Positions 405-47,800 of a stretch of DNA of 64,000 bases are shown in pieces. A program made the translations under genes and the position numbers. This DNA is from Bacillota bacterium (GTDB lineage: Bacteria > Bacillota > Negativicutes > JBAXTZ01). Each line of letters begins with the position of its first letter. The stretch's first letter is position 1. The stretch spans positions 909 to 64,908 of the forward strand of contig JBAXTZ010000016.1 of assembly GCA_037129925.1 (NCBI GenBank), given 5' to 3'. Below the pieces are notes generated by a model, which was not told the DNA's origin, searched no databases, and worked only from the letters and a program-made list of their open reading frames with translations.

Positions 405-580
405 CTCCAAATAAGGGCGCATTTAAGGGCTGTAAACGCCCTTTGTTTTATTATAACATATGAGAAAGCACCAAACAAAAATAAACTGATTAAGGAAGGT
501 GAAAAAACTTATGGAAGCCTATCACAAAGTCAAATCCGTGGTCAATGGAGCGTCGAGACAAAAAATTATTCGAGGTGAAA

Positions 581-1186
581 ATGTACAATGAACCGCGCTT
601 CAATTACGCTCAAGTTGACCCAGACACTGCAAATCTCTTGCGTTCAACCGCACATGAAATACAAAGCTCGCAGTGCAGAACTCGCGAGGCATTGGGCAAA
701 ACTCTAAAGAACGCAAAGAAAAGGTTGGCACAAACTGGTCACGTCTGTTTTGCACAGTGGGTATATCAGGAATGTTGTATGTCAGCTACAACGGCTAGAA
801 ACATGATTAGCGTTCATGAATTGATTGTGAACAATGTTCCCGATCGAGAACTTATCGAGATGCTCCCCGCGTCTCTTGCCTACGAAATCGCAAAACCTAC
901 AGCAGACCAAATATTAAAGGCTGCCGTCCTCAGCGGGGGCATAACGACGCACAGAGAGTACAAGAAGTTGGAAGCAGCTAAAATTAGAATAGCGCAAGAC
1001 GCTGCTGCCGCTAAAATGATGCTAAAAACTGCTGCGGCGGGTTTAACCAGATCCGAACGAGATCGTAGTGAATTTGAGGCGAAACAAAAGCAGGCGCAGC
1101 ACAACTTGTCCAAGTCCATTAAGGATAACGAACAGCTGCTGTGGAAGTTATTTCTTCTGACACACAAGAATTCCGTGTTAGCGTGA
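581..1186 (+). CDS. DUF3102-like phage protein
   Basis: Pattern EALGKTLKNAKKRL..GHVCFAQWV..ECCMSATTARNMISV. RBS GAGGTG precedes ATG 581 (ORF track starts at 545). Confidence 0.6.
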   Translation: MYNEPRFNYAQVDPDTANLLRSTAHEIQSSQCRTREALGKTLKNAKKRLAQTGHVCFAQWVYQECCMSATTARNMISVHELIVNNVPDRELIEMLPASLAYEIAKPTADQILKAAVLSGGITTHREYKKLEAAKIRIAQDAAAAKMMLKTAAAGLTRSERDRSEFEAKQKQAQHNLSKSIKDNEQLLWKLFLLTHKNSVLA

Positions 1187-1252
1187 CAATCTGCAACACT
1201 GACCAACTACGCATTGACAACAATCCCCCAATTAAAAGAAAGGAGACATACA

Positions 1253-1447
1253 ATGTCACGTTTTCTAAACGTTTCCGAGGCTGCAAAACTCCTCGGCGTA
1301 TCAACCCAGCACCTATACAACCTGTTGGCTCGCAAAAGTCCTGAACTAAAAGCTATCAAGCTTGGGCGCCGCTACCTACTGCCGGCAGACCAGTTCAACC
1401 CGGGAGGAAAGCCTGATGACACAGCCGAAGCAGAACAAATTCACTAG
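1253..1447 (+). CDS. Excisionase-like helix-turn-helix protein (HTH_17)
   Basis: FLNVSEAAKLLGVSTQHLYNLL..LKAIKLGRRYLLP; RBS AAGGAG before ATG 1253. Confidence 0.85.
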   Translation: MSRFLNVSEAAKLLGVSTQHLYNLLARKSPELKAIKLGRRYLLPADQFNPGGKPDDTAEAEQIH

Positions 1448-3587
1448 GGCCGCGCTCGAATACGTGCGAAAGGACATCCCAGTCTTTGCCTGCCACTCAA
1501 TCGAGAAAAGCGGCGAGTGCACATGTGGCAAACGTGAATGTAAGAGTCCCGGTAAGCACCCCGTTAAATGGGGTGGTTTCAGCAACGCCACTACTGATGA
1601 AGGAGAGATCGAAAAGGCATTTCCCTTCGTAGTTCCTCGCAACATCGGAATCGCTACCGGCTCAGCGGCAGGTTTCTTCGTTCTTGATGTTGATGTCAAA
1701 AGCAATGGGCTGGAAACTTTGGCCGCACAGGAAGCGGAACACGGACAACTGCCGATAACACCGACGGCAAAGACCGGTGGCGGTGGTAATCATTATTACT
1801 TCAAACAGATCCCTAGTCTACGCAACAGAACTGGTTTTTTACCCGGTCTCGATATTCGAGCGGAAGGCGGTTACGTTCTTGCCCCACCCAGCCGACATAA
1901 GTCGGGAAATTCGTATGAATGGCTGCCGGGAAAGTCAATACTTGAAATTCCTTTAGCAGAAGCGCCGATTTGGCTAGTCGAACTGATCATTTCAAAGGCC
2001 CGCGCCACTTCATCTCAAACCAATGGCAAAGTACCTGAAGGCGGCAGGCATGATAGCGTTATTCGCTACGCAGTCAAGCTGCATCATTCAGGAAAGTCTC
2101 CTGAGGACTTACTTGAAGAAGTAATCGCATATAACAACGAAAAATGTGAGCCGCCTCTCGAACCGGATGAAGTCGAACGCATCTGCAACGATGTAAGCGA
2201 ATATGAACGATGTTTTGCGCTAACGGACTCCGGCAACGCCGAACGCATTGAAGCATATCTGAGCGATGAACTGCGCTACAACGTTGATATCGATAAATGG
2301 CTTAATTGGACAAGTAGTCACTGGAATCACTGTCTGGATGCTATTGCAAGAGAAATGGTGTTGCCAATAATGCGCAACATTCCAAAGCAAGCTGCAGATG
2401 CCAGCGATAATATTCAGAAAGAGTTTGTCAGTTTTGCAAAAAAATCAGAATCGCTCCAAGCGCTCAAAAACTGCACTGAACTTGCAAAATCCAAGCAGAG
2501 GCTGCGAATAAGGAACAATGAACTAAACAGCGATAACTGGCTGTTCAACGTTAAGAATGGGACTGTTAATCTCAAAACCGGCGTATTCCAGAAGCACTGT
2601 CGCGACGATCTAATAACAAACCTTGCGAACGTTTTCTATGATCCGGACGCAAAAGCACCATTGTGGGAAAGCGTCGTCAATCGGTGTATGAATAACAACT
2701 TCGAACTTCTACGATTCCTTAAACAAGCGTTAGGTTACTCACTAACCAGCGAAACCGGCGAGCAAGCGTGCTTTATTATGGTCGGCAAAGGTGCTAACGG
2801 GAAATCATTAATTGCAGACACCATAATGAAACTGCTTGGCTCCTATGCTGTCTCGTGTCCCAGTCAGACACTAATGTCTCGCAAAGGCGATGCCGGAATT
2901 CCTAATGATATTGCTCGTCTCGATGGCGCGCGCTTTATTTTGGCACAGGAAGGTGATGAAAACGACAATATCTCAGAAGCCATTCTCAAAAGGCTAACTG
3001 GGGAGGACAAAATGACTGCTCGGTACCTCTATAAAGAATTTTTCGAGTTCTACAACCGTGGCAAGATTTTTCTTGCTAGTAATCATCTTCCCAAAATACG
3101 GGGTACTGACGAGGGAATCTGGCGCCGGATAAAGCTCATACCTTTTGAAGTTACAATTCCTGCCGCCGAACGTGATAAGCACCTGTCCAAGAAACTCGAA
3201 GCCGAATACTCCGGCATACTTAACTGGCTTATATCGGGACTCAACGATTGGGTGAAAAACGGATTGGTCGAGGCCGCCATCATGACAACCGAGATTAAAC
3301 AGTATATTTACGAATCCGACCCCGTCCGGCAGTTCATATCAGAAATGTGTTCTGAACACAGCGGAGGAAGAATTTCATTTCAAAATTTGTACTGTTGCTA
3401 CCGTGATTGGTGCAAAGAAAATGGGCACACGCCGTGCGGTTCAAGAAAACTCAACGACCGATTGAGGGATTTAGGGTTTAAAGGTTTGCGTAACGGCGCA
3501 AAAGGCCAACACAACTGGCAAAATCTATCAGTCGACACGATAAATGGTCTGGATTGCGGGATAACTATCTATACAAATACTGGCTAG
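1416..3587 (+). CDS. Bifunctional primase-polymerase / PriCT / D5_N / SF3 helicase (P4-family primase)
   Basis: N-terminal CTCG..C..PGKHP, NIGIATG, VLDVD, TGGGGNHYYF, DIRAEGGYVLAPPS (Prim-Pol); Walker A GKGANGKS; RGTDEGIWRR. RBS GGAGG before ATG 1416. Confidence 0.9.
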   Translation: MTQPKQNKFTRAALEYVRKDIPVFACHSIEKSGECTCGKRECKSPGKHPVKWGGFSNATTDEGEIEKAFPFVVPRNIGIATGSAAGFFVLDVDVKSNGLETLAAQEAEHGQLPITPTAKTGGGGNHYYFKQIPSLRNRTGFLPGLDIRAEGGYVLAPPSRHKSGNSYEWLPGKSILEIPLAEAPIWLVELIISKARATSSQTNGKVPEGGRHDSVIRYAVKLHHSGKSPEDLLEEVIAYNNEKCEPPLEPDEVERICNDVSEYERCFALTDSGNAERIEAYLSDELRYNVDIDKWLNWTSSHWNHCLDAIAREMVLPIMRNIPKQAADASDNIQKEFVSFAKKSESLQALKNCTELAKSKQRLRIRNNELNSDNWLFNVKNGTVNLKTGVFQKHCRDDLITNLANVFYDPDAKAPLWESVVNRCMNNNFELLRFLKQALGYSLTSETGEQACFIMVGKGANGKSLIADTIMKLLGSYAVSCPSQTLMSRKGDAGIPNDIARLDGARFILAQEGDENDNISEAILKRLTGEDKMTARYLYKEFFEFYNRGKIFLASNHLPKIRGTDEGIWRRIKLIPFEVTIPAAERDKHLSKKLEAEYSGILNWLISGLNDWVKNGLVEAAIMTTEIKQYIYESDPVRQFISEMCSEHSGGRISFQNLYCCYRDWCKENGHTPCGSRKLNDRLRDLGFKGLRNGAKGQHNWQNLSVDTINGLDCGITIYTNTG

Positions 3588-3603
3588 GAGCTATCAAAGG
3601 GTA

Positions 3604-3664
3604 ATAGCGCCTCTGTAATTGTTATAAGACTTAAGAGACAAGTTAATAATTATGGAGGCGCTAT
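3604..3664 (+). promoter_or_regulatory. Long hairpin sequestering the integrase Shine-Dalgarno
   Basis: ATAGCGCCTCTGTAATTGT pairs with ATAATTATGGAGGCGCTAT (19 bp with 3 G-U), ending at the base before the ATG. Confidence 0.6.
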
Positions 3665-4864
3665 ATGTCCAAAAAAAGCTTCGGAACAGTGGTTGCTTTG
3701 AAGGGTTACAAATACTTCAAAATAACCTTCATCGACCGAAACACAGAAAAGCTCGAACGGAAATATTTCCGCATTGATCCCAAAACGAAACAGCCGCAAA
3801 AGGCTGCTGAAAAAGAGGCGAGAAAATGGTTTGAAGACTACGAACGAGGAATCAGAACCAACACCGACATCACGCTTGAAGCGTGGCTTACCCAATGGCT
3901 TGAAACCTACTGTCAGCCACAACGAGCAGATGGCAGCGGTGGTTCCGTTACCCAAAAAACTTACGAAGGTTACAAATTTCACGTCCAGTACATCAACAAA
4001 TATTTAGGGAGCCACAAATTGCACACCTTAACCGATCTCACAATCTCCAAATTCTTTAACATGTTAAGCATACAACCGGGGCTTGGAAGAAGCGGAACAG
4101 GTCTGTCGATGAAAAGCATCAAAAATATGCGGCGCACATTGATTACGGCGCTCAACAGGGCTGTTAGGTCAGGCTACATCTTAAAAAACCCAGCGCAAGA
4201 CACTAAAACACCGTCAGGTGAAGCAAATGCTGAAGAAAAAGTCTTTGCGTTTAGCGAGGAACAGCTACTCAAATTACTTGGTTTGGCTGAGCTTAAAGGC
4301 GGCATAACGCACATTGCGGTTTACATTGCAGCAGCAACAGGAATGCGCATTGGTGAAGTTTTCGGGTTACGCTGGCAATGTGTTGATTTTACCGATAAGA
4401 CAATCTTTGTAAACCGCTCGGCCGCTTGCACTAAAGAATACGGGATGATGCTTAAAACCACAAAAACGGGAAACTCCCGAAAGATTGAAGTCGACGACAA
4501 GTTGCTGACTAAGCTGATGCAATGGAAACTCCAGCAGATCGAGCACAAAAACATGCTTGGCGAACTGTACGAAGATAAAGATTTAGTAATCGCAAACGAA
4601 TATGGCCGTCTGATGGATACAAACAACTTCTCTGCCAGAAACTACCGTACTCTTCTAAGCGAGCTAGGCCTTGATGGCTTCAATTTCCATAGTCTGCGCC
4701 ATACTCACGCAAGCATATTAATCAAAAGAGGGATAGCGATCAACACCGTTTCCCGAAGGCTCGGTCATTCTAACCCGTCAACGACGCTGGGAATATATGC
4801 CCATCTATTACCAGACTCACAAAGCAAAGCCGTGGCGGTTATGTCAGATGTCTATGGCAGCTAA
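3665..4864 (+). CDS. int: Tyrosine recombinase/integrase
   Basis: TGMRIGEVFGLRW, FHSLRHTHAS, RLGHSNPSTTLGIYAH catalytic motifs; N-terminal arm-binding/SAM-like region. Confidence 0.95.
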   Translation: MSKKSFGTVVALKGYKYFKITFIDRNTEKLERKYFRIDPKTKQPQKAAEKEARKWFEDYERGIRTNTDITLEAWLTQWLETYCQPQRADGSGGSVTQKTYEGYKFHVQYINKYLGSHKLHTLTDLTISKFFNMLSIQPGLGRSGTGLSMKSIKNMRRTLITALNRAVRSGYILKNPAQDTKTPSGEANAEEKVFAFSEEQLLKLLGLAELKGGITHIAVYIAAATGMRIGEVFGLRWQCVDFTDKTIFVNRSAACTKEYGMMLKTTKTGNSRKIEVDDKLLTKLMQWKLQQIEHKNMLGELYEDKDLVIANEYGRLMDTNNFSARNYRTLLSELGLDGFNFHSLRHTHASILIKRGIAINTVSRRLGHSNPSTTLGIYAHLLPDSQSKAVAVMSDVYGS

Positions 4865-4890
4865 AACATCATATCGTTGCCCAACGGGCA

Positions 4891-5334
4891 ATGGAAAGGA
4901 CTATCAAAGTGAATAACAGCTCAGACAAAGAATTAGGTACATGTCCAATCTGCGGACGTGGCTATAATGGCGGCAAACTCGATCACGATCGCCCGTGCAG
5001 TAATTACCAAGCAGCTTGCAAACACTTCGATGTAACTCCCCTACGATTAGACAGCCTCGAAGCAATTAAGTTACGTGCGTGGTGTACATATAGTGATGAA
5101 TCGTTACCGCTTGACAAACGATCTGAAGCCGTTCTAAATACTCTTAGCACCTACTTTTATCAGAGCTTGTTTGGCTCATTTAGGAGCAAAAGAAAACCTC
5201 GGTATGACGGCCATCCCAACGCTAAAGAGTACATTGCCGAGTTACTGCGCCAGAATAGTATGTTTGGGCGCTTTCCTAAAGAAGTCGTCCAACGGCTTCG
5301 GCAGCAATACGGCATTGAACCCAATACTGTGTAG
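4891..5334 (+). CDS. Hypothetical protein (CxxC, possible Zn ribbon)
   Basis: 147-aa ORF with CPICG..H..C, followed by a terminator. Confidence 0.6.
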   Translation: MERTIKVNNSSDKELGTCPICGRGYNGGKLDHDRPCSNYQAACKHFDVTPLRLDSLEAIKLRAWCTYSDESLPLDKRSEAVLNTLSTYFYQSLFGSFRSKRKPRYDGHPNAKEYIAELLRQNSMFGRFPKEVVQRLRQQYGIEPNTV

Positions 5335-5371
5335 AAAAAGACTACATACCAGACAATGTTGTCGCACCAAT

Positions 5372-5411
5372 AAAAGGGCTCTGCTAATGATCGGCAGAGC
5401 CTTCTTTTTTT
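5372..5411 (+). terminator. Intrinsic terminator
   Basis: GGCTCTGC/GCAGAGCC stem followed by a T-run. Confidence 0.75.
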
Positions 5412-5483
5412 GGTTAAAGTATAACTTTGAGTATAACTATCAAAAAAGGGCTCCCGGCGTAAACCGAAAACCCTTGTAATTAC

Positions 5484-5560
5484 TGGCCTGCCCGGCAGGA
5501 TTCGAACCTGCGACCTACTGGTTCGAAGCCAGCCACTCTATCCAGCTGAGCTACGGGCAG
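5484..5560 (-). tRNA. tRNA-Arg (anticodon TCG)
   Basis: 77-nt cloverleaf: acceptor CTGCCCG/CGGGCAG, anticodon loop CTTCGAA, GGTTCGAATCC T-arm, encoded CCA. Confidence 0.97.
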
Positions 5561-10599: not shown

Positions 10600-12087
10600 T
10601 TAACTTCCCGAAGCTTTGCGCCATGCATCTATTTGTTTTTGCATTTCGGCAATTACTTTATCTACTCCGGAGTTCTTCATTTTCTTTTGAAATTCAGGCA
10701 GCATTTTTTTCGGGTCGGATTGACCGTAAGCAAGGTAGATTGCATATTCATCAACAGTGTTGGATATAGCCGACACTTCTGCCGATACCGGCTGCGGGTC
10801 AAAGGAAAAGCCCAGTAGCGGCGACATCGTCGCAGTTTTGTTGAAGTCGGCGTATTTCTGCCATTTGTCGGCGGGGTCGCCTTTTTCCAGGTATAGCAAG
10901 AAAAGATTGCCGAGATACCAGTTAGGCATTACAAAATCCTTGGCGCGTTCGGTTTTTTCGATAACATTATCCGACAGCTTATTGTAGTGGATTCCTTCGA
11001 TGCCGAATCCAATCAGATTGCGCAAATATTTATCGCTGTTGAGCAGTTCAAGGAACTTTAACGCCCGCGCCGGATGTTTGCTGTTAACGGAAACTGCATA
11101 AAGCGCGCCGGTACAGGAATCAGTATTAGTAACCGGCCGTTCGGCAACCGGCAGACACATTACGGGAAATTTGTAATCCCGGGTTGCGGCAATATCCGCA
11201 TAGGGCGCATAGTTTGCTATATAGCAAAACAACTTTTTATTCCGAAAATCGGACATCGCATCAGTCTGCGTTCGTTCCTCTTGATAAGTTAATCCCTTTT
11301 GAAATGCCGCCCGGTTGACATCCAGCGCGACCGCTACTGCAGGATCTTCCCATTGATTGAAAACTTTACAGCTCTTGTCATCCAGCCGTACCGCTCCCGG
11401 GAATAAATTACCTTTGATAAAATCAAACGTGTCATTAAAATCAAACCAGGCAAACGGCTTATACATTGTAACACCGGGATGCGCCGACTTAACTTTTTCC
11501 AAAACCGGCAGTATTTCTGCAAAAGTCTTATACTTGCCGAGTGCGTCCGGGTCAATTACACCTTGCAGCATTTCCTTGTCGATATAATAGGCCATTACCG
11601 AAGCTGTTGTCGTATTGTATGGCACACCGTAAGTCTTTCCCTGAACTTTTGTGCCTTTCCAAAAATCGGCCGGACAAGATTCCAACAGCTTGGGCGCACA
11701 TTTTTCGATAATGCCGTCCAGTTGCAAAAAAGTCCCGGATGAGGCATTGCGGTTATAATCAAATGTCCAGTTGCAGGTGAAAGCTAAATCGTAGTTTTCA
11801 TTTGACAGGGCAATCATTTTCATTTTCGTACCATAATCACCGTAATCAATCATATTCAACTTTACGGTACAATTCAATTTTTGCTTGGTGTACTCATTAA
11901 CTTTTTCCATTACCAGCGGCAAATCAACCGGTGGCGGTCCCATACAATACCACACCAGTTCCACCGGCTGACTCATGTCGTCATCCGTTAACGCCGCCTC
12001 CTTGCTGCCGCACCCGGCAAACAGCGCGATAATCGCGGCCAGTAATGACAAAATCAGTACCAGCAGCATAATTCTAGTTTTATTCAT
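10600..12087 (-). CDS. Carbohydrate ABC transporter solute-binding lipoprotein (DUF3502 C-terminus)
   Basis: Lipobox FAGC; C-terminal LGFSFDPQPVSAEVSAISN..KKMKNSGVDKVIAEMQKQIDAW. Confidence 0.85.
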   Translation of the reverse strand: MNKTRIMLLVLILSLLAAIIALFAGCGSKEAALTDDDMSQPVELVWYCMGPPPVDLPLVMEKVNEYTKQKLNCTVKLNMIDYGDYGTKMKMIALSNENYDLAFTCNWTFDYNRNASSGTFLQLDGIIEKCAPKLLESCPADFWKGTKVQGKTYGVPYNTTTASVMAYYIDKEMLQGVIDPDALGKYKTFAEILPVLEKVKSAHPGVTMYKPFAWFDFNDTFDFIKGNLFPGAVRLDDKSCKVFNQWEDPAVAVALDVNRAAFQKGLTYQEERTQTDAMSDFRNKKLFCYIANYAPYADIAATRDYKFPVMCLPVAERPVTNTDSCTGALYAVSVNSKHPARALKFLELLNSDKYLRNLIGFGIEGIHYNKLSDNVIEKTERAKDFVMPNWYLGNLFLLYLEKGDPADKWQKYADFNKTATMSPLLGFSFDPQPVSAEVSAISNTVDEYAIYLAYGQSDPKKMLPEFQKKMKNSGVDKVIAEMQKQIDAWRKASGS

Positions 12088-12103
12088 CAGCCCCTCCACG
12101 TGT

Positions 12104-13849
12104 TTATGGTTTTTCAACAAATTCAACCACTTGTTGCTTTAGTTCATGTAGTTCGAATATTGTCAGAACATTTTTGCCGGTTTTCAAAAGCGGCGCTGGA
12201 ACGTACAAGTTGCGTTCCGGTCCGACATCCCAGTACCTGCCAATATTGAAACCGTTTATCCAGCAACAGCCCTTGGTTCCCTGTACCTTCAACCAGGTAT
12301 CGGCCGGAGCATCCACCTCGAACTCAGCTTTATAAAAAGCCGGTAGCCCATCCAATTGGCTATCGCCATATTCCAGCCCTGCAAGGTCATCCAGCGGCAG
12401 CGGATAAATCTCCCAATCGTGCAAAAACTGCTGCTCAATACGCACCCCGGTGGTTATTCCTTTGAAACTGTCTTCAAGAAAAGCGCCATAATTTACCCGA
12501 CCGAGATTTTCCACAAGAATTTCCAGCATTGCGCCGGTTTCAGGAACGGTGATTTTTACTGAATGTTCCTTGTCGTTTACATGCATAATGGCAATTTGTC
12601 GCCCATCCAAAAATATCTGCGCCCGGTCACGTGGTTCTTGAACGGTAAGCGTAACGTCAAGGTACGGTCCCCGCAAACGGCGGCGGTATAGAATGAAACC
12701 ATAATTTTGTCCTAATCGCTCCATACATAACGGCAACGGCGCCATATGACAGCGAGAGATATTGCCGAGATTGTCAAACAAGCCTGCCCGTTTTCCTAAT
12801 TCGACGACACCATACGCTTTCTTTAGACAGGGCGATGGCAACGGCGCAGCCAAATCGACAGCGGCATTGTATTTTGCCAGAACTTTCCGGTGCGCCAGAT
12901 ACTTAGGCGTTATATCACCGCACTCGTTTAATGGCGCATCTGAATCATAGCTGGTGACCGTCGGCTGATAATCGCGGATTTCCGGACGGTTGGCACCGTT
13001 CATGAACCCAAAGTTCGTGCCACCGTGAAACATATAAATATTTACCTGCCCGTCATTTTGCAAAATTTCATCCAGGCTTTGCGCCGCATCCGCTGCATCG
13101 CGGACGTGATGTTCTTCGCCCCAGTGGTCAAACCAGCCATTCCAGAACTCACCGCACATAAACGGCAAATCCGGCTGATATTCGCGCAGTTTCTCCCGCT
13201 GGCAACTGGTCCCCGAGCCAAAATTAACCGTCTCCCAAACACCCTCAATCATACCGCCCTGCAACATATAGTCCAGCGCGCCATCCGAAGTAAACAACGC
13301 GAGCTTCGGCATTTGTTGTTCCAGGATATTCTTTAACGCAGTCAGATAGGCTTTGTCAGTACCGTAACTGCCATATTCATTTTCAACCTGCAACGCGATT
13401 ATCGGTCCGCCATTGACATGGGAGTACCGTTCAAGCCGCGGCAACAATTCGGCAAAAAACCGCCCGACTGCGTCTAAGAACGCCGCGTTATTACAGCGCA
13501 GCCGCATATCCGGCAAAACCGACAGCCAGCCCGGTAGTCCGCCAAAATCCCATTCCGAACAAATATACGGTCCGGGCCGGACGATGACCTTTAAACCCAT
13601 ACCACCAGCCAGCGCAATAAACTGCTCAATGTCCGCCATCCCTGTAAACTCAAACTTCCCCGGCCGGGGTTCATGCATATTCCAGGCCACATATGTCTCA
13701 ACACAATTCAAGCCCATGAGCTGTAGCTTGCGCAACCGGTCTTCCCACTGCTCGGGAACTGTCCGAAAATAATGTATGGCGCCGGACAAAATTCGAAACG
13801 GCTTGCCATCAATAAGGAAACCCGCTTTGCTGACTTTGGTCCTTTTCAC
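12104..13849 (-). CDS. Beta-galactosidase, glycoside hydrolase family 35
   Basis: SGAIHYFR, RPGPYICSEW, QVENEYGSY, EFWNGWFDHW, YMFHGGTNFG, TSYDSDAP. Confidence 0.95.
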   Translation of the reverse strand: MKRTKVSKAGFLIDGKPFRILSGAIHYFRTVPEQWEDRLRKLQLMGLNCVETYVAWNMHEPRPGKFEFTGMADIEQFIALAGGMGLKVIVRPGPYICSEWDFGGLPGWLSVLPDMRLRCNNAAFLDAVGRFFAELLPRLERYSHVNGGPIIALQVENEYGSYGTDKAYLTALKNILEQQMPKLALFTSDGALDYMLQGGMIEGVWETVNFGSGTSCQREKLREYQPDLPFMCGEFWNGWFDHWGEEHHVRDAADAAQSLDEILQNDGQVNIYMFHGGTNFGFMNGANRPEIRDYQPTVTSYDSDAPLNECGDITPKYLAHRKVLAKYNAAVDLAAPLPSPCLKKAYGVVELGKRAGLFDNLGNISRCHMAPLPLCMERLGQNYGFILYRRRLRGPYLDVTLTVQEPRDRAQIFLDGRQIAIMHVNDKEHSVKITVPETGAMLEILVENLGRVNYGAFLEDSFKGITTGVRIEQQFLHDWEIYPLPLDDLAGLEYGDSQLDGLPAFYKAEFEVDAPADTWLKVQGTKGCCWINGFNIGRYWDVGPERNLYVPAPLLKTGKNVLTIFELHELKQQVVEFVEKP

Positions 13850-21581: not shown

Positions 21582-22550
21582 TCATTTGGCGTTATTCCAT
21601 AATTCTTTTTTATTGACATTGGCGCAAAATACGCCATCGCATTTGCCCTCAATCAAACGCGGACATTGGCTGAAGTCTTCACGCTCGTAACAGGGTTCGC
21701 AGTGGATAACCACATCATAAGCGCCCAGTTCATCTTTGATATCTTTTTCTATATGATGGCACAGTTCATGCGCGTCCCGCAAGGTAACGTCGCGGTCAAA
21801 CACCATGTGCATATCAATGTGTTTGCTGCCGCCCGAACGGCGGGTGCGTAGTTTGTGTACCGAAACTATCTGCTGATGGCGGGCGATTAGCGCACGAATT
21901 TTCTCGTCATCTTCGGCGATATTAGCATCAATTAAATCGGAAAGGTTGGCTTTGGTCAATTTCAACCCTTCGCGAAAAATGATTAGCGCCATCGCGATTG
22001 CGATTATCGGGTCGAGAATATCCCAACCGGTAAATTTTATCAGCACTAATCCGACCAGCACCCCGCCGGATGTCCAAATATCGGCCTCATTATGCAACGC
22101 GTCTGCCTTTAGCGCCGGGGACTGGGTTTCCTCGGCAACTTTGTATAAATGTCGGGAAACAAAGATATTCGACGTAACCGATATCGCCATACAAGCCATG
22201 CCATACAGCAAATAGTCCGGTTTGCCGCCCGTCATAAGTTTTTGGACGGACTCATAGACAATCCAGATAGCAACCAGCACAATGAGTACCGACTCCACCG
22301 CCCCCGACAAATTTTCGACTTTACCATGTCCGTAATTATGGGCATCATCCGGCGGCAGCCCGGATTTTCGCACGGCAACATAAGCCATAAACGCTGCCAG
22401 TAAATCTACAAACGAGTGCGCGGCTTCGGCTACAATGCTGATAGCGCCGCTCAAAACCCCCACGACTAATTTAATAATTACCAAAGTCAGGCTGCAACAT
22501 ATCGCCACCAATGCCGCCCGGCTTTTTCTTTTTGTCACTTCAACGTTCAT
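21582..22550 (-). CDS. Cation diffusion facilitator family transporter
   Basis: [35 protein letters not shown]. Confidence 0.92.
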
Positions 22551-23832
22551 TAGCTCTCCTTAGCGCTTGTTCAATATCGTTAATCAAATCTTCGGCATCC
22601 TCAATGCCAATCGACAGTCTTATCAATCCGGGCGTAACACCGGCGGCCAACTGCTGCTCCTGATTCAATTGAGCATGGGTGGTGCTGGCCGGGTGAATGA
22701 CCAGCGACTTGGCATCAGCGACGTTTGCCAGATGGGTAAACAGTTCCAGACTATCGATAAACCGCTTGCCGGCTTCCAAGCCCCCAACTATTTCAAAAGT
22801 GAATATTGAGCCGGCGCCTTTGGGCAGATATTTTTCCGCCAATTGGTAATAGCGGTTTTCCGGCAGCGACGGATAATTTACCGACTGCACTAGCGGATTA
22901 CTTGCCAAATAGCTGGCAATGGTTTTGGCGTTTTCAACGTGCCTAGCAACTCGGAGCGACAGCGTTTCCAAACCTTGCAGCAGCAAAAATGAATTAAACG
23001 GACTGATACAGGCACCGGTATCGCGGAGCAGTTGCACCCGCACTTTGGTGATATAGGCAGCCTTGCCGCAATCATTGGCATAGCTGATGCCGTGGTAACT
23101 CGGGTCGGGATTGACCATATCCGGGAACCGTCCGCTTGCCGCCCAATCAAATCGTCCTGAATCAACGATAATTCCGCCGATTGACGTGCCATGTCCGCCG
23201 ATGAATTTTGTAGCGGAGTGAATAATGATGTCAGCGCCAAACTCAAACGGACGGATGAGATAAGGGGTGCCGAATGTGTTATCGATAATCAGCGGCAAGC
23301 CGTTTTGGTGGGCAATATCCGCCACTGCCGCGATATCAATAAGATTAATCCCCGGGTTACCAATTGTTTCAATATAAATAGCTTTGGTGTGTTCATTGAT
23401 TGACATCGCAAAATTATCCGGGCGGTCCGGATTGACAAAATGCACTTTTATACCCATTTTCGGCAATACGTGCTGAAATAAATTGTAAGTACCGCCATAC
23501 AGAGTGCTTGCCGAAATTATCTCGTCGCCGCAACTGGCGATATTTAGTATCGCATAAGTAACCGCCGCCGAACCGGAAGCAACTGCCAGCGCCCCGACAC
23601 CGCCTTCAAGCGCGGCTACCCGTTTTTCCAGGACATCGGTGGTCGGGTTCATTATCCGGGTATAAATATTGCCGCTTTCCTTCAACGCAAATAGATTGGC
23701 GGCGTGTTCGACGCTGTTGAACGCGTAGGACGTGGTCTGATAGATTGGCACGGCCCTGGCTCCGGTCGTCGGGTCAACTTGCTGCCCGGCATGGACTTGC
23801 AAAGTATCAAATTTATATTGTTTATTACTCAT
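22540..23832 (-). CDS. metY: O-acetylhomoserine aminocarboxypropyltransferase (sulfhydrylase)
   Basis: [49 protein letters not shown]; RBS GAGGTG before ATG 23832. Confidence 0.92.
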
Positions 23833-23882
23833 AATTTTCACCTCTATTTATTTTATATTACCAGCTATTCGTAATGTTCATC

Positions 23883-23912
23883 AAAAAGAGACATAGCTAT
23901 GCTATGTCTCTT
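23883..23912 (-). terminator. Attenuator terminator in the metY leader
   Basis: AAGAGACATAGC-ATA-GCTATGTCTCTT then TTT, about 50 nt upstream of the metY start. Confidence 0.8.
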
Positions 23913-23960
23913 GCCCGGAAACGGTATTGGCGTACACACCAAGATACCCGTTTCCGGGCA
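23912..23960 (-). promoter_or_regulatory. Leader hairpin directly after the leader-peptide stop
   Basis: TGCCCGGAAACGG...CCGTTTCCGGGCA 13-bp perfect stem. Confidence 0.75.
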
Positions 23961-24038
23961 TCACATCATCATATCAATAATAATCAACACTGACCTGAAA
24001 CCATCAAAAGAGCCCATGCAACAATATCGGTCATTCAT
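23961..24038 (-). CDS. Putative metY leader peptide MNDRYCCMGSFDGFRSVLIIIDMMM (25 aa)
   Basis: Strong RBS AAAGGAG, ATG at 24038, Cys-Cys-Met and terminal Met-Met-Met, stop immediately before the hairpin pair. Confidence 0.75.
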   Translation of the reverse strand: MNDRYCCMGSFDGFRSVLIIIDMMM

Positions 24039-24068
24039 GCCAATGCTCCTTTCACAGTTTATAGGCTA

Positions 24069-24097
24069 ATTCTAGCCGATTAACCAGCGGCTGTCAA
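24069..24097 (-). promoter_or_regulatory. SigA promoter of the leader-metY transcript
   Basis: TTGACA-17 bp-TAGAAT. Confidence 0.8.
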
Positions 24098-24103
24098 TTA
24101 TTA

Positions 24104-24583
24104 TCAGTTGACCGGCCCGGCGCGTTCAATTACCGGCGCAAACAACATTCCGCCGATTACCCCAACAATCGCTTGGGCGATATTTCCGTAGAGTGCCGTT
24201 ATGAACCCCGCCCAGCCGTATATCTCCAGTGTGACTGTTTGGTACAATACAATCATAATAATGCCGCCCACCGTCATTGCCAAGATTTTGCGTAAGCGTG
24301 AAGATTGACGATTGGCAATCAAACCGACCAAATAGCCTTGCAACCCATGGATAACAAAGCTAAACGGCGCCCAGATAAAATAGCCGCCTAACACATCAGC
24401 CATCGCTGTTCCAAAAGCGCCGCAAACCATACCGGCACGCCGGCTATGTCCGACAGCAACCGCCATGATTAAGGCATCGCCCAAGTGCGCGTAGCCGTTG
24501 AAAGTAGGAATCTTTAACACTGCCGTTGCCAGCAACACTAGCGCGGTCAGCAAAGCGTACAGGGCAATATCTCTCGTCCGCAT
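24104..24583 (-). CDS. ECF transporter S component
   Basis: GYAHLGDALI, GAFGTAMADVLGGYFIWAPFSFVIHG; about 5-6 TM segments. Confidence 0.88.
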   Translation of the reverse strand: MRTRDIALYALLTALVLLATAVLKIPTFNGYAHLGDALIMAVAVGHSRRAGMVCGAFGTAMADVLGGYFIWAPFSFVIHGLQGYLVGLIANRQSSRLRKILAMTVGGIIMIVLYQTVTLEIYGWAGFITALYGNIAQAIVGVIGGMLFAPVIERAGPVN

Positions 24584-24665: not shown

Positions 24666-26132
24666 TTACTTCTTGGTCTTATTCCATTCATCCAGTTGCT
24701 TTTGCACTTCAGCAAGCAATTTATCAAGGCCAGCGGCCTTTAGCTTGGCGTTCATTTCCGGCAACGCCGTCTGATAATCCACCATACCCATCGCGATGGT
24801 TGGATAATACTGCTCCATCACGTTCTTGAGCGCGGATATTTCGGCGTTTACCGGCTGCGGGTCAAAGACGAATCCTAATGCCGGTGAAGGCACAACCGTG
24901 GTGTTGAATTCGGCAAATTTTTTCCATTTATCTACCGGTTCATTATCCATTACATAATTGATGAACATATTGCCCATCTCCCAATCCGGCATCGAATAGT
25001 TTTCTTCTCCAGCCTGTGTCCGCTTGATTTGATTTTCGCCAATTTTGGTATAGTGTTCACCTTCAATACCAAACACCAGCAAATTATGCAGATAGGAGTC
25101 GGTGTTCATCAGATTGATAAACTTCATCGCCCGCGCCGGATTTTTGCTGTTGACATTTATCGCGGTCATCGAGTCCATCAACATACCGGTGGTACAAGTG
25201 GGCGTTGTCGATACCGCTGAAGCCAGCAGCGGCATCTTGTAAGATTGCTCGCGCCACAGATCGCCGTAAGGCGGGAACGGTTCGACGCAAGTAAGCAATT
25301 TCCCCGTTTGAAAGTCCTTACGGTTGTTTTCTGTCGGAATGGCTTTGTAAGTATAGCCTTTCAAGTATGCCTCACGCAAATCTTTGAAAGCCTCCAAATA
25401 TTCTGCCGATTCAAATTGATTAATAACCTTGCCAGATTTGTCGCTCAACTTAATCGCTCCGGGAATTCCCGATTCAATCAAATAGTCGAAGCACTCGGAC
25501 ATTTCAACGGATGTGCCGTTTCTAAACGCCACTTTCCCGGGATTATCGGCTTTATATTTTTCAAACAACGGGAACCAGTCGCGGAGCTTTTTGCCCGGAC
25601 CATAATCAAACGGATATTTCACCGTGGTGTTTTTGTTAAAGTAATAGGCATTGCGCGCGCCAAAATCCTTGTTGGTCGGTACGGCATAATTTACCCCTTT
25701 AATTTTCGTGCCGTTCCAAGCCATTTCCGGTAGCGCCTTTTTCATTTCGGCGCCATATTGGTTCAACATATCATCTAGTGGCATAAACATGCCATTTTGC
25801 GCGTTGCGAGCGTAGTTGTTTGCCCAAATCGAGGTGAACACCAAATCATAGTCGTCACCGCCATGGGTCATCGCTGTGACTTTCTGATCGTAATCGCCGA
25901 TTGGGATAAACATGATCTCGATTTTACAATTTAGCTTGTCCTTTAGATACTCATTAGCCTTGGCAGTTACTTTGGCTAAGTCTTTCGGTGAACCTTCAAA
26001 AGTTAACATAATCCATTTGAGCGTGACTTCTTTAGAGGTATCATCTTCGAGGTTGGCTTTACTGCCACCGCAACCGCTGAGAACCAGTGTCAGCAAAAAT
26101 ACTGCTAAAACAAGCCAGGTAAATTTTTTCAT
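24666..26132 (-). CDS. Carbohydrate ABC transporter solute-binding lipoprotein (DUF3502), paralogue of 10600-12087
   Basis: Lipobox LSGC; LGFVFDPQPVNAEISALKN..KLKAAGLDKLLAEVQKQLDEW. Confidence 0.85.
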   Translation of the reverse strand: MKKFTWLVLAVFLLTLVLSGCGGSKANLEDDTSKEVTLKWIMLTFEGSPKDLAKVTAKANEYLKDKLNCKIEIMFIPIGDYDQKVTAMTHGGDDYDLVFTSIWANNYARNAQNGMFMPLDDMLNQYGAEMKKALPEMAWNGTKIKGVNYAVPTNKDFGARNAYYFNKNTTVKYPFDYGPGKKLRDWFPLFEKYKADNPGKVAFRNGTSVEMSECFDYLIESGIPGAIKLSDKSGKVINQFESAEYLEAFKDLREAYLKGYTYKAIPTENNRKDFQTGKLLTCVEPFPPYGDLWREQSYKMPLLASAVSTTPTCTTGMLMDSMTAINVNSKNPARAMKFINLMNTDSYLHNLLVFGIEGEHYTKIGENQIKRTQAGEENYSMPDWEMGNMFINYVMDNEPVDKWKKFAEFNTTVVPSPALGFVFDPQPVNAEISALKNVMEQYYPTIAMGMVDYQTALPEMNAKLKAAGLDKLLAEVQKQLDEWNKTKK

Positions 26133-41852: not shown

Positions 41853-44800
41853 TTACCAGTCGATAAACACCGTTCCGGTCGGGTCAATATCGTTAAACGA
41901 CATCGCACTTGAAACCACTGTCTTGCCGGCTTTTTCTGCCTTGAAGTAATACTTCGTAGTCTGGTTGCCATTATACCAAACTTTTATCGGAGTGATCAAT
42001 CCACCCGCGCTGGTCGTACCACAGACAACCCAGCCGGAAGATGCGTTCGACGATATTGATATTATGGCGTCGCTGACCATGTTAGAAGGATTTAACGCCT
42101 CGTGTACACCGACGAGAACGCTAGGTTTGTAATAAGCGCTCGGCCGCCACGCCGGATTTGTACCAGTACTGATAGTACGCGTCATTGATACCAAATTGTC
42201 GCCATAAACCGTTGCCGTCGGAACAAAGGCAAAGGTATATTGAGTACCAGCTGTGTTCGGCGGTAAGCAGTCGGTGAAGGTCGCCGCTCCTGATTGGGTT
42301 GCTCGTTCGACAACCGTTGCCCCCCAAGTAGCAGTGACTTTACCGGCTAACGCGGTGTTGACCCCAAAGTCGATAGTCACGTTAATGCTGCCGGGGTTGG
42401 GCTCGACATAGCCGGTAGCATTGCTGATTTCCGGAGTCGCTTCAGATAGCGCCAAAGGCGGACTAGTAATTACATTCTTTAGCGTGCCGCTAATATAAGC
42501 GCCTAAAGTATATGTTACCAATGGAATATTCAGGAAAGCCACTCCGCCTGATTGATAGGTTGTTGTCAGCGGATCGCCAGTAGGCGGAAACAAATTGACC
42601 GTTGAGCCATTAGCGATTTGGGTTGTTTTACTGGCATCCGTGTAAATCAGCAAACTTCGGATTGAACCATCTGACGGTGGTGCGGGCTTCGCAGGCCCAG
42701 TGATGGTCGCAGACTGGGGCACACCGATTTGAATAAGAACAGGGCTCGGGTTGCTTAGATAATCGGCTTCCGGGGTCGGCGGAAATGGATCTGCAACATC
42801 TTTTCTGATATAGACATACCATTCGCCCGAAGTCAGGGTTGAGAATTCGAAGTAACCGTTTACGTCGGTCACGCCAATTCGATAGTTACTAGAATTGGTT
42901 TTTGAAACAGCCTTGACCTCCCAGCCATACATTTTCGTTATACCGTCCGCGTAGCGAGCTGTTATACTGACTTTTCCGCTAGGTAACGGAATAACGAAAT
43001 TAGTATTTATGACAGTACCCGATACAGCGGTAACTTCCATAGTATATGTTTGTCCGGATATTACTGTAGAAACTGTGTAGCTACCGGGATTAACTCCGTA
43101 AAAATAGCCAATCCCGCTAGCATTTGTTGTTACGTTGAATGTCGTCAACCCTTGAGTGATGGTAATAGGCTGATTTGGTATGAGCACACCATTATCATAT
43201 TTCAGAGTAATAGCCAGATCACCTTTCAATGGATTAGTTGGTCCGGTGATTGCCACCGCGGTGCTGGCATTAGCCACTACTGTTATCGGGTTTCCCGTTG
43301 CCGGATAATCCACGCCGCTTATTGTCGCTTTCACTACATAGCTGCCGACATTCATTCCCGTGATCGTCGCTACTCCGGCTACTGTTGTTCCGGTATATGT
43401 CGCACTTCCGGTTGCCGTTACTACCGTTCCGTCCGGTACATTCGTTCCATCGGTGTACTTAACCGTCGCCGTGATTCCCGTCTTCAAAGGATTCGCCGGT
43501 CCGGTTATTGTCGCCGTTGTTACTACCCCGCCGCTTACTGTTACCGGATTCTCTGTTGCATTGTAATCTGTTCCGGCTATTGTTGCTTTTACGGTGTATT
43601 GTCCCAATAACATATTGCTTACTTGGGCTGTTCCGTTACTATTCGTTGTTCCGTTATAGGTCGTACCACTTCCTACAGGCGTTATTGTTACCGACGCTCC
43701 ATTGATCGCCGTTCCATCGGTATATTTAAATGTCGCGCTTACTGTTCCTTTAAGCGGATTGTTCTGTCCGGTTATTGTTGCAGTTGAATTGTGGTTTGCC
43801 GTTACCGCAATCGGATTCTCTGTTGCATTACATACGTTACCGCCTACCACCGCGCTCACGTTATAGGACGCACCCGGCGTAACGTTCATAATCTGCGCCA
43901 CTCCGCTACTATTAGTTGTCCCAGTAAATGCCGTGCCTCCGGCTACTGGCGTCGCGGACACTATTGTTCCGTTTACCGGTGTCTGATCGGTATATTTGAC
44001 CGTCGCCGTAATCCAGCCGTTTGCCGGATTGTTGGCGCTATTGATTGTTGCCGTTGCTATTGCGTTCGCTACAACTGTCACTGGATTCTCATTGGCATTA
44101 TAATCCGCGCTGTTTATGTTGGCTTTTACAACATAGCTGCCCGGATCCATGCTTAATATCGTTACTGTTCCGCTGGTCGTCGTTCCGGTGTAGACCTTCG
44201 TTCCAGTCGCCGTTACTAATGTTCCGTCCGGCACATTCGTTCCGTCGGTGTACTTCACCGTTGCCGTTATCCCAGTCTTTGTCGGATTCGCCGGTCCGGT
44301 TATCGTTGCTGCAGCCGTCTGTCCAACCGTTACTGCAACATTCGCTTGGTTATAGACCACGCTGTTGATTGTCACTGTCGCGGTATATGTTCCCGCAAGC
44401 AGTTGATTGAACGTCGCCACACTGCTGCCGTTGGTTACAGCTGTCGGATGGTTCACACCTGAAGTCATCGTCACTATCTGCCCGGCTCCGACCGGATCGC
44501 CATTGCTGTACGCTACCGTAATATTTGCGTAGCCATAACCCGGATTATTCGGTCCGGTTATCGCCACCGTAGCCGTCTGTCCGACAGCAACTACTGTCGG
44601 CACGCCGCTATACGGAGTTCCATTTATCGTCACGCTCGTTGAATACGTCGCAGCACTCAACCCTACGAAGCTCGCCACTCCGCTTCCATTGGTTGTCGCC
44701 TGTTTACTCGTTGCACCGTTATTCGCGGTTACTACCACTCCGCTCACCGCGGTATTATCTGTGTATGTCACCGTAACATTCAGCTGCCCGGTCTCCGGGT

Positions 44801-47800
44801 TGTTGCCGGTGGCTATTGCCACTGCGGTTATAACATTCGCAGCTACTGTTATCGGATTTCCCGTTGCCGGGTAATCCACGCCGCTTGTTGTCGCTTTCAC
44901 TACATAGCTGCCGACATTCATTCCCGTTATCGTCGCTACTCCGGCTACTGTTGTTCCGGTATATGTCGCACTGCCGGTCGCCGTTACTACCGTTCCTTCC
45001 GGCACGTTCGTTCCGTCGGTGTACTTAACCGTCGCCGTTATTCCAGTCTTCAACGGATTCGCCGGTCCGGTTATCGTTGCTGTCGACACGTTGCCGCCGC
45101 TCACTGTCACCGGATTCTCAGTCGCATTGTAATCTGTTCCGGCTATTGTTGCCTTGACGTTGTACTGTCCTAACAACATGTTGTCTTGTTGCACAACACC
45201 GTTGCTGTTCGTTGTTCCAGTGTAAGTCGTTCCCGCTCCGACCGGCGTCATCGTTACCGTCACGCCGCTCACGGCGTTTCCATCGGAATATTTTACTGTC
45301 GCGCTAACCGTTCCTTTGAGCGGATTGTTAGGCCCGGTTATCGTTGCCACTGCGTTCTGGTTCGCTACTACTAATACCGGATTCTGGCTGGCGTTGCACG
45401 GGCTGCTGCTTATCGTGGCGCTCACGTTGTATGCGCCTGGCACGATATTCAATATCTGCGCCACGCCGTTACTGCCGGTCGTCGCAATAAATGCCGCTCC
45501 TCCGGCTACCGGCGTTGCTGTTACGATGACTCCGTTTACCGGCGTTGTATCGGTATATTTAACTGTCGCCGTTATCCAGCCTTTGGACGGATTGTTCGCG
45601 CTATTGATTGTTGCTGTTGCTATTGCGTTTGCTACTACTGTTACCGGATTTTCATTGGCATTGTAATCCGCGCTGTTTATGTTGGCTTTTACAACATAGC
45701 TGCCCGGATCCATGCTTAATATCGTTACTGTTCCGCTGGTCGTCGTTCCGGTGTAGACCTTCGTTCCAGTCGCCGTTACTAATGTTCCGTCCGGCACATT
45801 CGTTCCGTCGGTGTACTTCACCGTTGCCGTTATCCCAGTCTTTGTCGGATTCGCCGGTCCGGTTATCGTCGCCAACGTTACTACTCCGCCATTAACTGTT
45901 ATCGGATTACCAGTTGCTTGATAATCTGTTCCCGCTAGCATAGCTTTTATGTTGTACTGCCCCAATAGCATATTATTTACTTGCGCCGTTCCGTTGCTAT
46001 CGGTCGTTCCGGTGTAGGTCGTTCCGCTTCCAACCGGCGTTATCGTAACCGCCGCTCCATTTATCGCCGTTCCATCAGTATACTTAAATGTCGCGCTTAC
46101 CGTTCCTTTAAGCGGATTGCTCGAGCCGGTTATTGTTGCAGTTGAATTGTGGTTGGCGGTTACTGCTACCGGATTCTCGCTGGCATAACATACGTTTCCA
46201 CCGACTACCGCGCTCACGATATATGATGCACCAGCGGTAATGTTCAAAATCCGCGCTATTCCGCTACCATTCGTCGTACCAGTAAATGCCGTGCCCCCTA
46301 CTACCGGTGTTGCAGATACTATTGTTCCGTTTACCGGTGTCTGGTCGGTAAATTTTACTGTCGCGGTTATCCAGCCCTTGTCAGGATTGTTAATGCTGTT
46401 AATCGTTGCTGTCGCCATGGCATTGGCTACTACTGCTACCGGATTCTCGTTGGCATTGTAATCCACATAGTCAAATGTTGCTTTCACAACATAGTTGCCA
46501 ACAGTCATACCAGTGAATGTCGCAATTCCGGCAACTGTCCTTTGAGAATATGTCGTGTTGCCGGTCGCAGTCACTAGCGTTCCATCCTGCACGCTTGTTC
46601 CGTCGGAATATTTCACGGTCGCCGTTATTCCGGTCTTTGCCGGATTCGCCGGTCCGGTTATCGTCGCCATCGCAACTACACCGCCGCTCACCGTCACCGG
46701 ATTCTCGGTCGCATTGTAAATTATTCCGGCGATTGTTGCATTTACGTTGTATTGTCCCAATAGCATGTTGCTTACTTGGGCAGTTCCGTTGCTGTTCGTC
46801 GTGCCGGTATAGGTTGTTCCACTGCCTACCGGCGTAATTGTTACCGCCGCGCCATTGACCGCAGTTCCGTCGGTATATTTAACGGTCGTACTCACCGTCC
46901 CCTTATTCGGATTACTGGTGCCGATTATTGTTGCCGTCACATTGTGATTTTCAATTACTTCCAGCGGATTTTCGCTGGCATTTGCGACTATGCCGCCTAC
47001 TACCGCACTAACGTTATACATTCCCGGAGCCATGTTCAATATTTGTGCAACACCGTTACTTCCGGTTGTTCCACTATATATCTTCCCGCTGGTCAACAAA
47101 GTAGCGGATACAGTCGTTCCGGCTACCGGTGTCAGATCGGAATATTTTACTGTCGCCGTTATCCAGCCATACGCCGGGTTGTTGGCGCTGTTTATCGTTG
47201 CTGAAGAAATTGCATTGGCTGCTACCGCTATCGGATTCTCGTTGGCGGCGTAATCCGCGCCGCCGATGTTCGCTTTCACCACATAGTTGCCAACACTCAT
47301 TCCGGTTATTGTCGCTACTCCGGCTACTGTCGTTCCAGTATATACCGTACTTCCGGTTGCTGTCACCACCGTTCCATCCGGCACATTCGTTCCATCGGTG
47401 TACTTAACCGTCGCCGTGATTCCCGTCTTCAACGGATTTGCCGGTCCGGCTATCGTCGCCACTGCCGTATTCCCAACGGTCACTCCAATGTTCAACTGGC
47501 TGTATGTTCCACCGCTTATCGTCACCGACGCTGTGTATGTCCCAGCAAGCAACTGCGTAAACGCCGCAACACTGCTGCCATTGGTTACTGCTGTCGGATG
47601 GTTCGCTCCCGCGGTCATCGTTACAGTCTGTCCGGCTCCGACCGGATCGCCATTGCTGTAGGCTACTGTGATATTCGCATAGCCATAACTCGGGTTGTTC
47701 GGTCCGGTTATCGCCACTTCGGCCGTCTGTCCGACAGCAACTACTGTCGGTGCACCACTATACGGCACACTGTTTATCGTCACGCTCGTCGAATACGTCC

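Follow-up and report, generated by a model that had tools for sequence, protein, structure and literature searches.

The window considered here is a 64-kb stretch of DNA (64,000 nucleotides of contig JBAXTZ010000016.1) from a freshwater or bog-lake metagenome, belonging to an uncultured organism whose closest MetY sequences are found in metagenome-assembled genomes (MAGs) labelled Negativicutes. On its minus strand lies metY, encoding an O-acetylhomoserine sulfhydrylase or homocysteine synthase, preceded by a leader of roughly 180 nucleotides (nt) from the promoter that contains a short upstream open reading frame (uORF) ending in three Met codons, a strong hairpin and an intrinsic terminator. 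We see an even chance that this element is the cis-regulatory leader of an operon composed of metY and a CDF cation-efflux gene, acting as a ribosome-dependent attenuator that reads the supply of Met through a non-classical design. Positions are those of the window, with the leader and metY read on the minus strand from 24130 to 23800, and the features are as follows.

24097-24092, minus strand: -35 hexamer TTGACA (promoter scan, 11/12 together with the -10 hexamer)
24074-24069, minus strand: -10 hexamer TAGAAT, separated from the -35 hexamer by a 17-nt spacer (promoter scan)
24053-24046, minus strand: Shine-Dalgarno (SD) sequence of the uORF, GAAAGGAG, 7 nt 5' of the ATG at 24038
24038-23961, minus strand: uORF of 25 codons plus TGA (23963-23961), encoding MNDRYCCMGSFDGFRSVLIIIDMMM
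24018-24023, minus strand: Cys codons 6-7, TGT TGC
23964-23972, minus strand: Met codons 23-25, ATG ATG ATG, the presumed sensing codons
23999-24059, minus strand: hairpin P1, in which the SD of the uORF (AAAGGAGC) is paired with codons 9-11 (GCUCUUUU) and the start codon is enclosed
23912-23960, minus strand: hairpin P3, 49 nt, its first base being the base after the uORF stop
23881-23912, minus strand: intrinsic terminator directly abutting P3, with a 3-nt loop and a T5/U5 tail
22540-23832, minus strand: metY (NF006096, 728 bits; PF01053, E 9e-140)

An earlier note on this DNA, made by inspection, had described a TTGACA-17-TAGAAT promoter, a ribosome-binding site (RBS), a 25-codon reading frame, a 13-bp hairpin after its stop, a terminator and the metY RBS. 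All of these parts were found in place and in that order on the minus strand. The two hexamers form the best promoter-like site of the region in the promoter scan (11/12) and are predicted to start transcription near 24062, placing GAAAGGAG-N7-ATG 9 nt into the transcript. The arms of P3 (23960-23948 and 23924-23912) are 13 nt long and 100% complementary, and the whole hairpin folds at -31.5 kcal/mol in the window. The arms of the terminator (23912-23901 and 23897-23886) are 12 nt long and likewise 100% complementary, the hairpin alone folding at about -13 to -15 kcal/mol, and P3 and the terminator share one base at most. The terminator scanner overlooked the terminator of the window solely because TT of the tail was taken into the stem; the same scanner calls the homologous terminators of three related loci (L047, L050 and L054). 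About 50 nt past the terminator the sequence GAGGTG provides the RBS of metY, followed by the metY ATG at 23832. The predicted 238-nt leader RNA folds as four successive hairpins, namely P1, a weak P2, P3 and the terminator, and its folding energy lies far below that of shuffled sequences (z = -6.9, with 0 of 200 shuffles as good).

The window has 466 ATG-started small open reading frames of 10-45 codons; none but the uORF bears the string MMM, and none but the uORF has at least two Met residues in the last three codons. Since both properties are unique in this set, the uORF is not a chance reading frame.

Two further observations concern the hairpins themselves. Each arm of P3 (23948-23959 and 23913-23923, minus strand) can fold on itself, which gives a cruciform-like alternative to P3: the 5' arm as CCCG-GAAA-CGGG, a hairpin with a GNRA-type tetraloop that begins 3 nt past the stop, and the 3' arm as CCG-UUUC-CGG. 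Within the 3' arm of the terminator (23886-23900, minus strand) an ATG opens a tiny reading frame in all four lineages that carry the leader (MSLFDEHYE, MSLF, MSLFA and MSFLYY), with SD-like GAGA or GAGG in the 5' arm. This frame is probably a by-product of the conserved CTATGTC stem.

The metY neighbourhood was compared across six lineages of the clade to which the organism belongs. The clade is small and isolated, searches with MetY and the CDF protein yielding five protein clusters at ≥77% identity, followed by Sporomusaceae at ~53% (values for the CDF protein); the search with the CDF protein recruited no further homologues of the leader. A homologous leader is present in four of the six lineages: the window, L047/48 (MetY 95% identical), L050-52 (87%) and L054-57 (79%), and in these four carriers the intergenic leader region spans 260-290 nt. 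The promoter scores 11/12 in all four, with the -35 hexamer TTGACA invariant in L047, L050 and L054 and the -10 hexamer TAGAAT or TAAAAT at the same place. No promoter-like site (≥9/12) was found between the terminator and metY in any of the four. Since the site upstream of the uORF is thus the only promoter-like site before metY, expression of metY must, on this prediction, pass the terminator.

The conservation check on the uORF that the earlier note had proposed came out in its favour, the SD, the ATG and the 25-codon frame being kept in the four lineages. The SD GAAAGGAG is invariant, and in each lineage the uORF has 25 codons, is the sole open frame and stops at UGA. The peptides of the relatives are MNNRFCCLGSFDGYRSALIIIDMMM, MYHRFCCCGSIGGFCSRLIFINMMM and MSCFGNGFSLIRVVTGVHHDSYMIM. 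Their common tail is M-[M/I]-M-UGA (MMM in three lineages and MIM in one), with a hairpin 0-1 nt after the UGA in 4/4 lineages. The block ATATGATRATGTGA is invariant except for one ATG to ATA change in L054 and is, together with the foot of P3, almost invariant, and 14/15 of the last five codons plus stop are identical. Over the uORF as a whole, 5-10 non-synonymous codon changes equal or exceed 3-5 synonymous ones, and the peptide of L054 is nearly unrelated apart from its tail, a pattern that argues against purifying selection on the peptide. Since the length of the frame, its end point and the terminal Met codons are fixed and the peptide sequence is free, the comparison points to a leader peptide, not a functional small protein.

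At the level of RNA structure, RNAalifold recovered P1, P3 and the terminator from the alignment of the four lineages and did not recover P2. Four compensatory pairs were present, one in P1, one in the upper stem of P3 and two in the terminator, and P1 additionally shows several switches between G-U and G-C. The lower stem of P3 (12-13 bp) is invariant in sequence save for G-U transitions, the upper stem covaries, and the terminator retains a 10-12-bp stem and a U5-6 tail. Folding energies across the four lineages are -13.6 to -22.7 kcal/mol for P1, -25.7 to -31.5 kcal/mol for P3 and -13.1 to -15.3 kcal/mol for the terminator hairpin.

A UGA followed so closely by a strong hairpin raises the prospect of recoding or read-through, with P3 serving as a bacterial selenocysteine insertion sequence (SECIS) or another stimulator and the ribosome that passes the UGA entering the terminator and blocking termination. 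The stop is UGA in all four lineages, with the hairpin 0-1 nt later, and past it the window, L047 and L054 have a frame that stays open across the whole terminator; that of L050 is closed by a UAG in the 5' arm of the terminator. However, the extension shows no coding constraint, all differences between the window and L047 being non-synonymous, the L050 frame is displaced by a 1-nt indel in the loop of P3, and a GC-rich hairpin is expected to be free of stops by chance. Neither selenocysteine genes in the annotated parts of the window nor a functional link between selenium and metY control were seen, and recoding is considered highly improbable.

The leader was compared with known RNA families. 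A cmscan search of the whole window against Rfam at the gathering score returned nothing except a tRNA, and within 23700-24250 nothing better than E = 8. No SAM riboswitch or T-box model matched even at E up to 10 in the window, in L001/L002 or in L054; the best matches up to that value were unrelated (MIR530, SNORD25, Flavobacterium-1 and MS2). These results confirm that, as the earlier note had stated, an S-box or T-box does not precede metY here. Other identities were considered and rejected: a repeat or mobile element, since the P3 hairpin and the terminator are each single-copy in the window; a reading frame through P3 that begins at a UGAUG stop-start overlap, since the AUG is absent in L054 and early stops occur in L047 and L050; and a T-box-like UGGU bulge in P3, which is not conserved in L054. 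A search of metagenome contigs with the pattern CCCGGAANCGG-N10-40-CCGNTTCCGGG, which is palindromic and generic, gave at least 120 unrelated hairpins, and none of the matches listed was similar to the leader. Metagenomic DNA runs contained only low-depth fragments of known variants.

Four lines of evidence favour a Met-responsive attenuator: the only promoter fires into a terminator, the architecture of the uORF is conserved while its peptide drifts, the terminal Met codons are conserved and unique, and the controlled gene encodes a sulfhydrylase of the Met pathway. The following sequence of events is proposed. P1 hides the SD and start codon, so that the uORF could be translated only by a ribosome loading co-transcriptionally, which probably limits translation to one such ribosome. 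P3 starts where the leading edge of that ribosome would arrive at codons 23-25, and each of the last three translocations would therefore open GC pairs. With ample Met-tRNA(Met) the ribosome would reach the UGA, open the first 7-9 bp of P3 and be released, after which the leader would refold and transcription would stop at the terminator. With scarce Met-tRNA(Met) the ribosome would halt at the foot of P3 while decoding codons 23-25. Since the 49 nt of P3 are looped out and its two ends lie adjacent, the 5' arm of the terminator would emerge at the entrance of the stalled ribosome. We infer that a stalled ribosome, compared with a released one, would lower termination and allow metY to be transcribed, the conversion of stall into read-through taking place without a classical antiterminator helix. 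The geometry would equally allow the opposite sign, against which only the biology of a biosynthetic gene argues.

Both antiterminator pairings put forward in the earlier note had to be abandoned. The pairing of GTATCTTG with CAAGAGAC is broken in every relative, CAAGAG being changed to CTTGAG or GTGTAG. As a free duplex ATGGGCTCTT and AAGAGACAT pair weakly (-7.7 to -15.4 kcal/mol), in a register that differs between the three close lineages, and L054 offers nothing homologous; moreover, the 5' strand of this pairing is locked as the 3' strand of P1. The strongest partner of the 3' arm of the terminator plus U-tract found with RNAduplex is the SD region (-8 to -13 kcal/mol). This pairing was also rejected as an antiterminator: since the 3' arm emerges last, it cannot pre-empt the local hairpin. 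The antiterminator helix that defines classical attenuators was thus sought by alignment scan, by masking and by energies, and was not found, the only pairings to emerge being weak and specific to individual lineages.

Several results weigh against a Met-responsive attenuator and are gathered here. When every pair of columns in the four-way alignment was scanned, 5-bp A-U/G-U helices touching the terminator were all that emerged beyond P1, P3 and the terminator itself. When a footprint of ±14 nt was masked to represent a ribosome, whether on Cys codons 6-7, on any of the Met codons or on the stop, the pairing probability of the terminator was 0.94-1.00 throughout in all four sequences. In transcripts that stop short of the 3' arm, upstream partners bring the 5' arm of the terminator a gain of 0 to -6.6 kcal/mol, against -13 to -15 kcal/mol for the terminator itself, and this gain is smallest when the A site is occupied by the first Met codon. 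No more than 3-9 nt separate a ribosome stalled on codons 23-25 from one that has reached the stop codon, and position alone hardly distinguishes the two states. Shortage of Met would also slow initiation on the uORF. In L054 the middle Met codon is replaced by an Ile codon (ATG to ATA), and the Cys codons, present as CC or CCC in the three close lineages, are reduced to a single Cys at codon 3. The carriers are four related lineages only, and part of the conservation is shared ancestry. Two of the six lineages, L049 (identical to L001; MetY 89-90%) and L053 (83%), are without the leader. Finally, read coverage was zero in three small metatranscriptome runs from one sample.

The idea of an attenuator in which ribosomes stall at Met and Cys codons, as proposed in the earlier note, therefore survives in part. 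The conserved cis-leader, the terminal Met codons and the terminator support it, the antiterminator does not, and the Cys part of the sensing appears weaker than the Met part, since only one Cys codon is present in the most distant lineage.

The lineages without the leader also bear on the possibility that the element is an independent small gene, for a 25-residue peptide or a small RNA of ~125-180 nt, with its own promoter and a double-hairpin terminator, metY being expressed by leak-through or from an unrecognised weak promoter. The promoter, RBS, reading frame, hairpins and U-tract do form a complete stand-alone unit, and the terminator is predicted to form under all conditions. Visual inspection of the window shows a weak TTGATG-N18-TAATAT, preceded by a TG, past the terminator, and attenuator RNAs or leader peptides can act in trans, as for rnTrpL/peTrpL (PMC6614838, PMC7298713). 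Against this stands the lack of conservation of the peptide, with non-synonymous changes exceeding synonymous ones and L054 unrelated save for the tail; the site read by eye is not conserved, and the interval from the terminator to metY holds no site of at least 9/12 in the four lineages. The element also moves with metY and not with the upstream neighbour. The gene immediately upstream, encoding an ECF-type S-component, is separated from the leader in L054 by metA (homoserine O-acetyltransferase), from which it follows that the leader travels with metY. In L049 and L053 the promoter, uORF, P3 and terminator are all missing together and metY lies 33 nt (L049) and 18 nt (L053) behind the S-component gene; this joint loss, with metY rewired to the upstream gene, is as expected of a cis element. 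An independent small gene is accordingly regarded as unlikely. Judged by MetY identity the distribution looks like two losses of the leader; judged by S-component identity and synteny, L049 and L053 may be sisters, in which case there would have been one.

How the ribosome could act in the absence of an antiterminator admits a specific version of the Met-responsive attenuator, which we advance tentatively and consider rather unlikely. Here P3 would be both a ruler and a collapsible spacer, and occupancy by the ribosome, or its invasion of P3, would decide termination. Decoding of the three Met codons would coincide exactly with the unwinding of GC pairs that P3 imposes on the ribosome, and P3 would set the 5' arm of the terminator at the mRNA entrance of the stalled ribosome, with no alternative RNA fold involved.

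The invariance of the lower stem of P3 also allows a reading in which the uORF is translated and needed and the Met codons are not the sensor. Regulation would then act on access to the SD through P1 or on any ribosome at the foot of P3; an unknown ligand, protein or RNA would target the invariant lower stem or P1, with the ribosome a mere helicase whose stop is set by the length of 25 codons. In keeping with this, the SD-hiding P1 is kept in 4/4 lineages with register shifts that preserve the pairing, and the uORF keeps its length and stop position despite the drift of its peptide. A sequence-specific constraint is hinted at by the 12-bp lower stem of P3, which is invariant in contrast to the covarying upper stem and terminator, and modelled pairing of the 5' arm rises slightly as the ribosome enters P3 and not at an earlier stall. 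The metNIQ operon of the same genome, moreover, lies under a different, uORF-free, antiterminator-like motif of 25 nt, from which it follows that a Met-responsive trans factor probably exists. On the other side, this reading leaves the conserved terminal Met codons and their uniqueness (1/466) as coincidence, no Rfam aptamer matches, the leader and the metNIQ motif share no sequence similarity, and there is no antiterminator for the supposed factor to stabilise. We consider it rather unlikely.

The motif in question, TGGTTGATCAGAMATACTGAAGACC, occurs twice in the window, after metQ and before the metNIQ operon (61235-61310 and 63815-63935, minus strand). The operon consists of metN-metI-metQ and is followed by genes for a PALP enzyme, a Cys/Met pyridoxal phosphate (PLP) enzyme and a methyltransferase (58.2-63.8 kb). 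The 3' end of TGGTTGATCAGAMATACTGAAGACC is the 5' arm of an intrinsic terminator, and the motif can form a small hairpin (GGUU/GACC, UCAG/CUGA) that would exclude this terminator. A uORF, an Rfam match and similarity to the metY leader are all lacking in the region of TGGTTGATCAGAMATACTGAAGACC. The Met genes of this genome thus seem to be served by two distinct leaders of unknown type.

The genes that flank the leader and metY are the following.

21582-22550, minus strand: CDF cation-efflux gene, with an 11-nt overlap with the end of metY
24104-24583, minus strand: ECF-type S-component gene (PF07155; weak TIGR04002), ending 7 nt before the -35 hexamer

Since it overlaps metY by 11 nt, the CDF gene is predicted to be in the same transcription unit. 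All six lineages, whether or not they carry the leader, show an overlap of 8-11 nt. A homocysteine synthase is thereby translationally coupled to a metal exporter, and in L054 the C-terminus of the CDF protein is rich in Cys. The S-component gene has no terminator of its own ahead of the leader and is found upstream of metY in 6/6 lineages (L049, 1985-2467; L053, 942-1424; L054, 212-739). It forms one operon with metY in two lineages and with metA in L054, and its joining to one or the other suggests that the substrate of the S-component is linked to Met metabolism. No genes for the ECF A or T components were found next to it.

Between the S-component gene and a [FeFe]-hydrogenase the window holds a gene for a DUF3502 solute-binding protein (24666-26132). 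The same gene is there in three of the four lineages with the leader (the window, L047/48 and L050) and not in L054, and it is absent in the two lineages without the leader; a second DUF3502 solute-binding protein is encoded at 10600-12126 of the window. At 545-5560 a Prim-Pol/D5-type primase-helicase (1362-3587) and a tyrosine integrase (3665-4864) adjoin a tRNA gene (5487-5560), an arrangement that suggests a small integrated element. An open reading frame of 2547 residues occupies 41853-49496.

Leader-peptide attenuation is textbook knowledge for Trp, His, Phe, Leu, Thr and Ile/Val. The metY leader resembles the classical attenuators of E. coli and Salmonella (trpL, hisL, pheL, thrL, leuL and ilvL) in its promoter-proximal short reading frame with its own SD, in a cluster of codons for the end product (here Met, metY encoding homocysteine synthase), in an intrinsic terminator before the biosynthetic gene and in a peptide that otherwise drifts. 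It differs in the amino acid, Met, and in the place of the sensing codons, which directly precede the stop as the final three; a 49-nt hairpin also parts the stop from the terminator, and the leader lacks the mutually exclusive antiterminator on which the classical mechanism centres. Met is also conceptually awkward for sensing by a leader, since the same amino acid is needed for initiating the leader peptide. Arrest peptides of the tnaC and speFL type need a conserved nascent peptide and Rho. With these the metY leader would share a ribosome held at the end of the uORF that controls downstream termination; its peptide, in contrast, is unconserved and its terminator is intrinsic. A bacterial SECIS likewise has a hairpin closely 3' of an in-frame UGA, but the metY leader shows no coding constraint past the UGA.

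The attenuator of ilvBNC in Corynebacterium glutamicum, also Gram-positive, combines a leader peptide with a series of three hairpins ending in a terminator (PMC11857589). There the terminator and antiterminator overlap (PMC11857589), whereas P3 and the terminator of the metY leader have at most a single base in common. Similar in design, with no sequence homology, are the Cys leaders of Actinobacteria predicted by Seliverstov et al. (2005), for which other attenuator elements were stated to be missing (PMC1262725); control by Cys through polycysteine reading frames was recently shown in mycobacteria by Canestrari et al. (bioRxiv 10.1101/834739). These leaders also precede sulfur-amino-acid genes, have regulatory codons beside the stop and lack a recognisable antiterminator. 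They differ in having runs of Cys codons, often leaderless mRNAs and no intrinsic terminator, a Rho-dependent or translational mechanism having been proposed, whereas the metY leader has Met codons, a 5' untranslated region with a strong SD and a clear terminator of hairpin and U-tract. Reviews of Met regulation in Gram-positive bacteria, as far as they are cited in PMC1262725, give the S-box for methionine. The S-box (SAM-I) and Met T-box leaders of Firmicutes likewise terminate transcription before Met biosynthesis genes; in the metY leader the signal would be read by the ribosome and not by an aptamer or a tRNA-binding RNA. A full-text literature search retrieved no described Met-sensing leader peptide or attenuator, in agreement with the earlier note, which knew of none.

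Reading frames rich in Cys or Met were also sought ahead of metY in other genomes, a search that the earlier note had suggested and that was answered in part. Over 44 loci there was no average enrichment relative to the reverse strand (mean score 2.1 versus 2.3), and two loci stood out. In a MAG of Acidobacteriota (L006, 1090-1380) a uORF MKNKISVICLMCCCCCS is accompanied by a downstream terminator, and in a MAG of Melioribacteraceae (L027, 1100-1430) a uORF MKVIYKNTAAGNSIMYMRMCCNCICLNT is followed by a hairpin, a sequence that by eye is S-box-like, and a terminator.

On present evidence the metY leader stands in place of the S-box or T-box usual for Met genes of Firmicutes. If it regulates, the position of the ribosome is coupled to termination otherwise than by an antiterminator, and if P3 indeed acts as ruler and spacer, the leader would couple ribosome and termination by a logic new to leader-peptide control and would be the first case of such control specific for Met. 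Being compact and well delimited, it is suited to reconstitution in vitro. Because Cys- and Met-rich uORFs also precede metY in other phyla, ribosome-based sensing of sulfur amino acids may be a widespread and undescribed regulatory theme, of which the metY leader is probably an independent instance distinguished by a terminator without an antiterminator.

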